From NCBI GenBank assembly GCA_963813995.1, contig CAWFAZ010000079.1:23236-87235 (forward strand): a DNA stretch of 64,000 bases, read 5' to 3'. Origin of the DNA: an uncultured Verrucomicrobiae bacterium (GTDB lineage Bacteria > Verrucomicrobiota > Verrucomicrobiia > Limisphaerales > Palsa-1400). The position numbers were made by a program, and so were the translations under genes. The stretch's first letter is position 1. Every line of letters starts with the position of its first letter. The notes beneath the pieces are model-generated. The model worked only from the letters and a program-made list of their open reading frames with translations, was not told where the DNA came from and did no database searches. Positions 29,076-29,952 of the stretch are shown here, piece by piece.

Positions 29076-29152
29076 GCGAGCGTAGCTCAGCCTGGTAGAG
29101 CATCACGTTGCCAACGTGAGTGTCGAGGGTTCGAATCCCTTCGCTCGCTCCA
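29076..29152 (+). tRNA. tRNA-Gly (GCC), canonical, CCA encoded
   Basis: gcgagcgTAGCTCAGCCTGGTAGAGCatcacgtTGCCAAcgtgagtgtcgaGGGTTCGAATCCCttcgctcgcTCCA. It has a standard D-loop GG and a standard TTCGAAT T-loop. Confidence 0.95.
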
Positions 29153-29284
29153 TCTCCATCAACGGCCCCGTCTTTCGACGGGAATTCGTCCAAGACAACC
29201 GCAATTCTTCCGCCATCATCCGAGGCGAAATAATTTTTTGAAATATTTCTTGCATGTAACCGATGGCTTGTGCTATCGTCTTAC

Positions 29285-29517
29285 AAGTTCGATGAAAACT
29301 TGCTTGAACATATCAGCCACGAGTTGGCCGACGATGACGGTCGCAAAAGCGACACGTCATAGCCGGATTACCCGGGGCTATGTGTTTAGCCTTGGACTAT
29401 CCCTGGCGCCAATCGGGCAACGGCCCGAAGGTAATTCGGATAGACCCGGTGTAAGCAGGTAACGAATCGAAAGAGAATTTCTTCACCCTGCTTACCGCGT
29501 GTAAGCAGGGTTTTTTA
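29285..29517 (+). ncRNA. Structured leader or small RNA with mutually exclusive terminator/antiterminator
   Basis: A possible promoter (ttgcat-18 nt-tatcgt) lies near 29252-29281. Several local hairpins are present, for example atgacg-gtcgcaaaagcgac-a-cgtcat. An identical 11-mer gtgtaagcagg occurs at 29449-29459 and 29499-29509, and both copies can pair with cctgcttac at 29487-29495. Family unknown. Confidence 0.4.
29486..29517 (+). terminator. Rho-independent terminator
   Basis: ccctgcttac-cgcgt-gtaagcaggg followed by tttttt. Confidence 0.75.
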
Positions 29518-29520
29518 TTT

Positions 29521-29863
29521 TCCCTGTATAACTGAGACGAGAATGGCGGATAACGAAAGATGAACAGTCTGTGAACAAGAATAGCGCGACATCCAGGTGA
29601 TGTCTTCTGGCGACAAACTGAATTTGGCGAGGACGAGCAGAGAAGCCTCACCGGTGGGGTCTGCCCACAGCCGGAAGACAGAGCCGCCAGGACGATCCAG
29701 ACGAATTTTGCATTTACATTTTAAGGGCTTCGCAGGAGGTGTGCCCCCAAACACCGAAACAGCCGCCGTGAAACCGCGGGTTGGTATCGCAAGATAGCAA
29801 GAGGTGTTTGTTCTTTGTTGAAATGGCATGGGCCGGAAGCGTGGCAACGCTTCCGGCCCTTTT
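29521..29863 (+). ncRNA. Second non-coding stretch ending in a strong hairpin-T tract. Function unknown.
   Basis: There is no credible ORF on either strand. It ends with a 12-bp GC-rich hairpin plus tttt. I could not match it to SRP, 6S, tmRNA or RNase P. Confidence 0.3.
29830..29863 (+). terminator. Rho-independent terminator-like hairpin 7 nt upstream of the first tRNA-like unit
   Basis: gggccggaagcg-tggcaa-cgcttccggccc followed by tttt. Confidence 0.7.
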
Positions 29864-29869
29864 ACTTTC

Positions 29870-29943
29870 GCGGCTGTGATTTAACAGCAGAATGCCTCCC
29901 TGCCAGGGAGGACGCCCGGGCGCAACCCCCGGCAGCCGCACCA
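29870..29943 (+). tRNA. tRNA-like unit 1, anticodon GCC (Gly), non-canonical T-loop CGCAACC
   Basis: Acceptor gcggctg/cagccgc; 3-bp D stem att/aat with loop taacagcag; anticodon arm cctcc-cuGCCag-ggagg (GCC at 29902-29904); T arm ccggg-cgcaacc-cccgg; A73; CCA encoded. Confidence 0.7.
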
Positions 29944-29952
29944 ATTCTTGAC

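Follow-up and report, generated by a model that had tools for sequence, protein, structure and literature searches.

Within a 64,000-nucleotide window from an uncultured Verrucomicrobiae bacterium (the window being the whole stretch of DNA that was analyzed), positions 29233-29869, immediately upstream of a long tRNA array, form a single conserved leader with its own promoter, which would gate transcription into the array. Taken as a whole, this reading, which we favor with moderate confidence on comparative sequence evidence, holds that the leader is a ribosome-mediated attenuator sensing general tRNA or translation sufficiency, and not a riboswitch. A small ORF encoding all 20 amino acids ends on the switch, and such an arrangement probably activates spare tRNAs (in relatives, rtcB, the gene of an RNA-repair ligase) when translation falters.

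Extent and distribution of the leader

Rfam placed a canonical tRNA-Gly at 29076-29149 and the start of the first tRNA-like unit of the array at 29870; the array, delimited using ARAGORN and Rfam, extends to about 33490, giving 3.6 kb of untranslated sequence. When 29160-29869 was compared with relatives by BLAST, 20 of 40 genomes carried 29240-29869 at 70-93% identity, and two copies were common. An order-wide BLAST search matched the leader unit (about 630 nt) in 135 of 401 genomes, while BLAST and pattern searches of 400 genomes sampled evenly across the phylum outside the order found it in only 2; its distribution is therefore patchy. A wider survey, for which a 24-nt core pattern was taken from the 3' part of the leader (M3), retrieved more than 120 contigs, nearly all from Verrucomicrobiota, plus four IMG/VR viral contigs. 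Carriers of the pattern included Chthoniobacter flavus Ellin428, Prosthecobacter, Luteolibacter, Akkermansiaceae, Pedosphaera, Limisphaerales, and Methylacidiphilales, and the cultured C. flavus Ellin428 possesses the same leader (locus L153). Homologue counts given here overstate independence, as these sequences are related to one another; the arrays also spread horizontally.

The unit was split into three modules, M1, M2, and M3 (Table 1), and profile HMMs detected all three in most loci. The order M1-M2-M3-array or M1-M2-M3-rtcB was strict across loci, and a tRNA array was present within 100-1000 nt 3' of the leader in nearly all loci with downstream room.

Table 1. Positions of the leader features in the window
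Feature	Position	Strand	Description
Promoter	29233-29279	+	A/T-rich upstream stretch, -35 TTGCAT (29250-55), 18-nt spacer, -10 TATCGT (29274-79)
M1	29286-29520
uORF1	29292-29462	+	56 codons, MKTCLNISATSWPTMTVAKATRHSRITRGYVFSLGLSLAPIGQRPEGNSDRPGVSR; ATG at 29292, stop TAA at 29460-62
r1	29298-29306	+	ACUUGCUUG, codons 3-5; tentative r2 partner closing the folded ORF region
r2, antiterminator strand	29449-29459	+	GUGUAAGCAGG; last uORF1 codons, directly 5' of the stop
T1	29485-29516	+	r3 (29485-95), loop, r4 (29501-11), U6; terminator scan
M2	29566-29712
Hairpin around uORF2 start	29588-29604	+	GACAUC-CAGGU-GAUGUC; encloses the start codon; variants GACAUCUAGAUGAUGUC and GACGUCUUGAUGAUGUC in the alignment
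uORF2	29600-29797	+	65 codons, MSSGDKLNLARTSREASPVGSAHSRKTEPPGRSRRILHLHFKGFAGGVPPNTETAAVKPRVGIAR; ATG at 29600, stop TAG at 29795-97 inside P3
M3	29713-29869
M3 core	29723-29810	+	Nearly invariant structured element, includes AAGGGCUUC
M3 part GGAGGUGUGCC	29735-45
M3 part AAACACCGAAAC	29749-60
M3 part P2	29763-66 with 29776-79		Covariation: GC 89, AU 15
M3 part P3	29781-88 with 29793-800		Base covaries UA/GC/AU; GC/CG
M3 part GAGGUGUUUG	29801-10
boxA-like element	29807-29824	+	UUUGUUCUUUGUUGAAAU, directly after the uORF2 stop; TGTTCTTTG at 29809-17
T2	29830-29869	+	13-bp stem (29830-59), then UUUUACUUUC; tRNA-like unit starts at 29870

The promoter, which a preliminary description of this region had missed, was kept in the homologue alignment, where conservation begins at TTGCAT-N18-TATCGT and the A/T-rich stretch; transcription is predicted to start at about 29285-29288. 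The approximately 80 nt between the tRNA-Gly and the promoter (29153-29232) were not conserved in homologues, which places the start of the conserved unit at the promoter and makes the tRNA-Gly a mere neighbor, possibly an integration site. The rRNA promoter of the same genome, AAAAAGGCTTGCG-N17-TATTTT, has the same layout as the leader promoter. Upstream of the 16S gene (L204, on G000:C82, and L205-L208), the rRNA promoter (A-tract, CTTGCG, N17, TATTTT) closely resembles that of the leader.

Neither a promoter scan nor conservation revealed a candidate promoter in the sequence between T1 and the array. In line with this, the preliminary description had argued that there is no room for a separate promoter before the array; no promoter-like site was seen, and the first tRNA-like unit begins 10 nt past the T2 stem. 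Given the lack of an intervening promoter-like site and the conserved leader-array order, its suggestion that the array is under read-through control is plausible.

The T1 switch and uORF1

The preliminary description had also reported two strong intrinsic terminators, together with a duplicated 11-mer, GTGTAAGCAGG, whose upstream copy could compete for the 5' arm of the first terminator. Terminator scanning and folding recovered both hairpins, at 29485-29511 followed by T6 and at 29830-29859 followed by TTTTACTTTC. The 11-mer was present at 29449-29459 and 29499-29509, two copies in the window versus 0.00 expected from 100 shuffles, and the T1 5' arm, CCTGCTTAC, was confirmed at 29487-29495. 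Pairing of this arm (within r3) with the upstream copy (r2) over 9 bp was kept in 102-104 of 104 non-redundant homologues. For T1 itself, 98% of cells were paired and five pairs had changed on both sides, and three-way covariation from U-A-U to C-G-C was observed at 29452/29494/29502. Conservation of the duplication in relatives, which had been named as a check, was found in that r2 resembles r4 even where the sequence itself has changed: in Methylacidiphilales both read GGUGCGCGG, the mimicry being kept despite the different sequence. Folding gave -18.1 kcal/mol for T1, -15.3 kcal/mol for the r2:r3 hairpin, and -29.5 kcal/mol for T2. With a ribosome footprint blocked at the uORF1 stop, the RNA folded into T1, and nascent RNA up to 29498 folded into r2:r3. 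RNAalifold on a MAFFT alignment retained only T1, and scanning the M1 interior for mutual information gave noisy results. Sequence comparison argues that T1 and the antiterminator are mutually exclusive, sharing strand r3, and that the choice between them is real and conserved; this part of the earlier proposal stood, while its riboswitch-type sensor did not.

A 6-bp core of r1:r2 (29298-303 with 29455-60) was base-paired in 90% or more of the 104 aligned sequences and lies within the MFE fold. No compensatory (double) changes were found in this pairing among the 104 sequences; being kept but without covariation, it is therefore treated as tentative.

The stretch 29285-29869 had been described as lacking any credible ORF, and 29285-29450 as the putative sensor. 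However, two ORFs (29292-29462 and 29600-29797) are conserved across more than 100 homologues, and in place of an ORF-free aptamer this segment holds a conserved structured ORF, the stop codon of which abuts the antiterminator strand. In alignment A1, which contains 104 non-redundant homologous sequences, the aligned ATG opens a frame of about 56 codons ending at a conserved GCAGG followed by TAA. Frame 0 was open in 98 of the 104 homologues, frames 1 and 2 in 1 and 3, respectively, and the distance from the ATG to GCAGG fell into 11 length classes, in-frame. A lineage-independent test was applied to 135 unique leaders with detectable T1, counting ATG-initiated ORFs of at least 40 codons. In 128 of these leaders, the ORF ended 19-37 nt (mode, 22) before the T1 arm, compared with 3 on the reverse strand and 1 in a shifted window. 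The same ORF-terminator geometry was observed, with unrelated peptides, in the viral contig L081, Chthoniobacter, Akkermansiaceae, and Methylacidiphilales. Judged by geometry alone, a ribosome footprint at the uORF1 stop codon, which lies directly 3' of r2, would mask r2. A conserved ORF with its stop abutting the antiterminator strand has the layout of a leader-peptide (ribosome-mediated) attenuator, and uORF1 is probably translated. Counting against this, three-base substitution periodicity was weak (entropy per codon position, 0.91/0.94/1.03; P value, 0.10), no Shine-Dalgarno sequence precedes uORF1, and the predicted 5' untranslated region is very short. Searches of Pfam and PHROGs with the uORF1 peptide returned no matches.

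Two candidate signals within uORF1 were rejected. A conserved rare ATA at codon 7 was considered as a sensing codon and was rejected because distant lineages read the conserved ACATAT in another frame. The codon adaptation index of uORF1 is low (0.53; 1.4th percentile), and it was discarded as a diagnostic since noncoding sequence would score the same.

The conserved feature of uORF1 is its composition and not its peptide sequence. The uORF1 of the window contains all 20 amino acids, encoded by 45 distinct codons. All 20 amino acids were found in 94 of 120 uORF1 peptides (78%; mean length, 56 amino acids) and at least 19 in 94%. The corresponding all-20 fractions were 7.8% for nucleotide-shuffled, stop-free versions, 2.9% for off-frame translations, and 2.1% for length-matched gene windows; uORF2 from these leaders was not enriched (8.5%). 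Distinct codons numbered 30.9±2.9 (maximum, 41) in gene windows and 36.8±2.4 (maximum, 44) in shuffles, versus the 45 of the window uORF1, and leader ORFs covered 29.3 of 31 NNY/NNR codon classes, versus 25.9 in shuffles. Clustering of the peptides at 45% identity yielded 10 clusters, 7 of which were mostly all-20. The single Tyr occupied 7 different positions across peptides (His, 6; Glu, 6; Gln, 4); single-copy residues shift position yet stay, and therefore it is their presence that is retained, not their position. No tandem regulatory codons or codon runs occur in uORF1, with W, C, F, D, Y, and H represented by about one copy each, and changes in r2 were nonsynonymous and tracked RNA pairing. 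Retention of an all-20 composition is expected if selection has made translation of the ORF depend on each type of charged tRNA. It is conceivable, though we would stop short of calling it probable, that uORF1 is a pan-amino-acid leader peptide, built to include each amino acid and nearly all codon classes, in which depletion, cleavage, or non-charging of any tRNA would stall the ribosome and activate the reserve array or RtcB.

The uORF1 region is strongly structured (z = -6.65), with 75% of cells paired versus 30-45% when the region was slid, and from the folding models such structure could equally suit a ligand-binding RNA. M1 (29290-29517) might then be a riboswitch, in which a fold of several helices, closed by r1:r2, recognizes a small molecule or tRNA and the ORF is incidental; binding would stabilize r1:r2, and T1 could form. 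The strength of the predicted structure, compensatory changes in several internal helices (helix 10; helices 7/8), and an expression platform of classic layout all agree with this possibility, but an untranslated aptamer leaves four features without explanation: the open frame, in-frame indels, a stop fixed at r2, and the all-20 composition. Furthermore, lineages share the ORF-terminator geometry but little of the M1 interior sequence. The preliminary description had been unable to assign the sensor part to a known riboswitch class; likewise, Rfam cmscan of 29100-29950 matched no riboswitch family, including T-box, at the gathering threshold or at E ≤ 10, and returned only tRNA. We consider a riboswitch unlikely.

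uORF2, the M3 core, and the boxA-like site

The second ORF and the boxA-like element had also been overlooked in the preliminary description. The uORF2 frame was open in 56 of 56 anchored homologues, with in-frame indels of 6, 9, and 63 nt. Of 118 leaders, 94 had an ORF of 45 codons or more whose stop lay within hairpin P3, 7 or 12 nt before the 3' GGUG, with the P3 sequence varying.

With two ORFs conserved in frame and strong hairpins at both T1 and T2, uORF1 and uORF2 might simply encode functional small proteins, each with its own terminator, leaving the r2/r4 duplication and the proximity to tRNA genes without regulatory meaning. This we regard as improbable. The peptides diverge almost completely between lineages, show little codon periodicity, and have no Pfam or PHROG matches, and nucleotide constraints override amino acids (V to A at r2; AAV..R to TTV..W in P2). 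In addition, r2 tracks r4 across lineages, and there is no promoter room before the array.

Within M3, AAACACC can pair with either copy of GGUGU. In two loci (L025:2036-2255 and L026:1951-2151), the loop between GGAGGUGUGCC and AAACACC holds a 63-nt insertion that contains a GC-rich hairpin of its own; in L026, the insertion is in frame with uORF2. One complete genome (G009) carries about eight scattered stand-alone M3 cores of approximately 85 nt (loci L029-L035; e.g., L029:996-1090), which are without uORF1, T1, and boxA and do not adjoin tRNA or rRNA genes. Two of these copies are preceded by an ORF of about 123 amino acids resembling a helix-turn-helix protein (MHSTDTKSKF...). A reading of M3 as an rRNA-operon leader was rejected because the G009 copies lie away from rRNA and tRNA genes and because the 16S leader is without M3.

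These stand-alone copies, away from tRNA and rRNA genes, and the nearly invariant core with its covarying helices across the phylum would also suit one or two separate structured RNAs that terminate at T1 and T2, similar to GOLLD or ROOL and acting in trans or as processing scaffolds. GOLLD and ROOL RNAs lie near tRNAs, which counts for this alternative as well. However, the leader had no match in Rfam, which includes GOLLD, ROOL, OLE, HEARO, and raiA, the conserved ORFs and stop-codon placement argue for translation, and the strict M1-M2-M3-array/rtcB order argues for action in cis. Stand-alone RNAs are therefore, in our judgment, a rather unlikely explanation, and we retain the attenuator reading.

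The heptamer GUUCUUU of the boxA-like element was invariant in 104 diverse M3 sequences. In this genome and four relatives, the rRNA spacer (AATGTTCTTTGACAAC) carries an identical copy of the 9-mer TGTTCTTTG as a boxA-like site ahead of the 23S gene; the spacer contains two boxA-like sites, TGTTCTTTAAAAAG and TGTTCTTTGACAAC. The 9-mer is not rare, with 49 copies in the genome, and the boxA reading therefore rests on invariance, position, and the rRNA-like promoter. Together, these suggest that the leader element has boxA function. As in the boxA/Nus system of rRNA operons, a UGUUCUUUG element and an rRNA-like promoter are found at the head of a long untranslated operon. Unlike rRNA boxA, the leader element, a putative NusB/NusE site, follows a predicted uORF and a phylum-specific structure and precedes a strong intrinsic-type hairpin. 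This hairpin, T2, has compensatory variants among homologues. No antiterminator for T2 was found, M3 being invariant while the T2 arms vary. rRNA-type Nus complexes are known to counter mainly Rho, not intrinsic terminators, which counts against the reading favored here.

Downstream genes, proposed mechanism, and known systems

In at least four genomes, the leader precedes rtcB and not tRNAs; rtcB was called by Pfam PF01139 in L024 and L028 and by clear sequence similarity in L101 and L143. Other genes are found 3' of the leader. In L014, L076, and L162, it is followed by a conserved protein of 200-240 amino acids (…IGEIPADLALLMRS…ITNARSSL…) without a Pfam match; a CorA-like protein is encoded downstream in L077 and L130, and an HNH-like ORF is present in L141.

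We propose that uORF1 would be translated while RNA polymerase transcribes the attenuator. A ribosome arriving at the uORF1 stop in time would cover r2, so that r3:r4 forms and T1 terminates transcription. A ribosome delayed anywhere in uORF1, because any tRNA is short or damaged or because of general translational stress, would leave r2 free to pair with r3, preventing T1 and allowing read-through; this direction of the switch, from stall to read-through, is the one predicted. In the read-through transcript, uORF2 would be translated through the structured M3, with the ribosome stopping about 10 nt before the boxA-like site. That site may load Nus factors, enabling the polymerase to pass T2 and the array.

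The proposed leader resembles the trp, his, leu, thr, and pheL attenuators in having a leader ORF and an intrinsic terminator whose 5' arm is contested by a strand farther upstream, and the logic by which ribosome position picks the hairpin would be the same. Those leaders have 14-32 codons with runs of cognate codons and control biosynthetic genes, whereas the tRNA-array leader has about 56 codons with about one of each amino acid and would control tRNA genes or rtcB. Also unlike the amino-acid-operon attenuators, its uORF1 region is strongly structured, and a second uORF and a second hairpin are present. The antibiotic-resistance genes vmlR and bmrB are under ribosome-mediated attenuators, in which stalling on a uORF relieves premature termination. 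The leader is likewise similar to E. coli toiL, upstream of topAI-yjhQ, where stalling on a uORF, with no specific ligand, relieves premature termination (10.1101/682021). However, toiL works through Rho, while the tRNA-array leader has the intrinsic terminator T1. uORFs of the toiL/vmlR/bmrB type are short and respond at particular codons or to particular drugs, and no report describes one with all 20 amino acids or one that controls tRNA genes.

The trn operon of Anabaena PCC 7120 is similar in being a long, horizontally spread array with rtcB tied in (PMC8421152). There, the tRNA array is silent until translation is impaired, and it is coinduced with rtcB by translational stress (PMC8421152). 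In contrast to the tRNA-array leader, the Anabaena operon is regulated through direct repeats that overlap the promoter and form a putative repressor site; that paper describes neither a leader ORF nor an attenuator, and "leader," "attenuat," and "terminator" have zero occurrences in it (PMC8421152). In the literature that we searched, neither an attenuator nor a leader peptide was found for tRNA arrays, the nearest mechanisms being uORF sensors of translation stress (10.1101/682021; 10.1101/834739).

For long, horizontally spread tRNA arrays, the single case of control studied so far, that of Anabaena, relies on a promoter operator. If the proposed reading is true, an all-20 leader would offer a simple way to gauge tRNA supply in general, and tRNA arrays and RtcB would be linked in one stress response. 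Classical attenuation would be extended from the sensing of one amino acid to the sensing of any tRNA, and this would be the first attenuation system controlling tRNA genes, one that would act in cis as a functional counterpart of RtcR-type sensing. With a pan-amino-acid leader, mobile arrays could counter anticodon-nuclease defenses.
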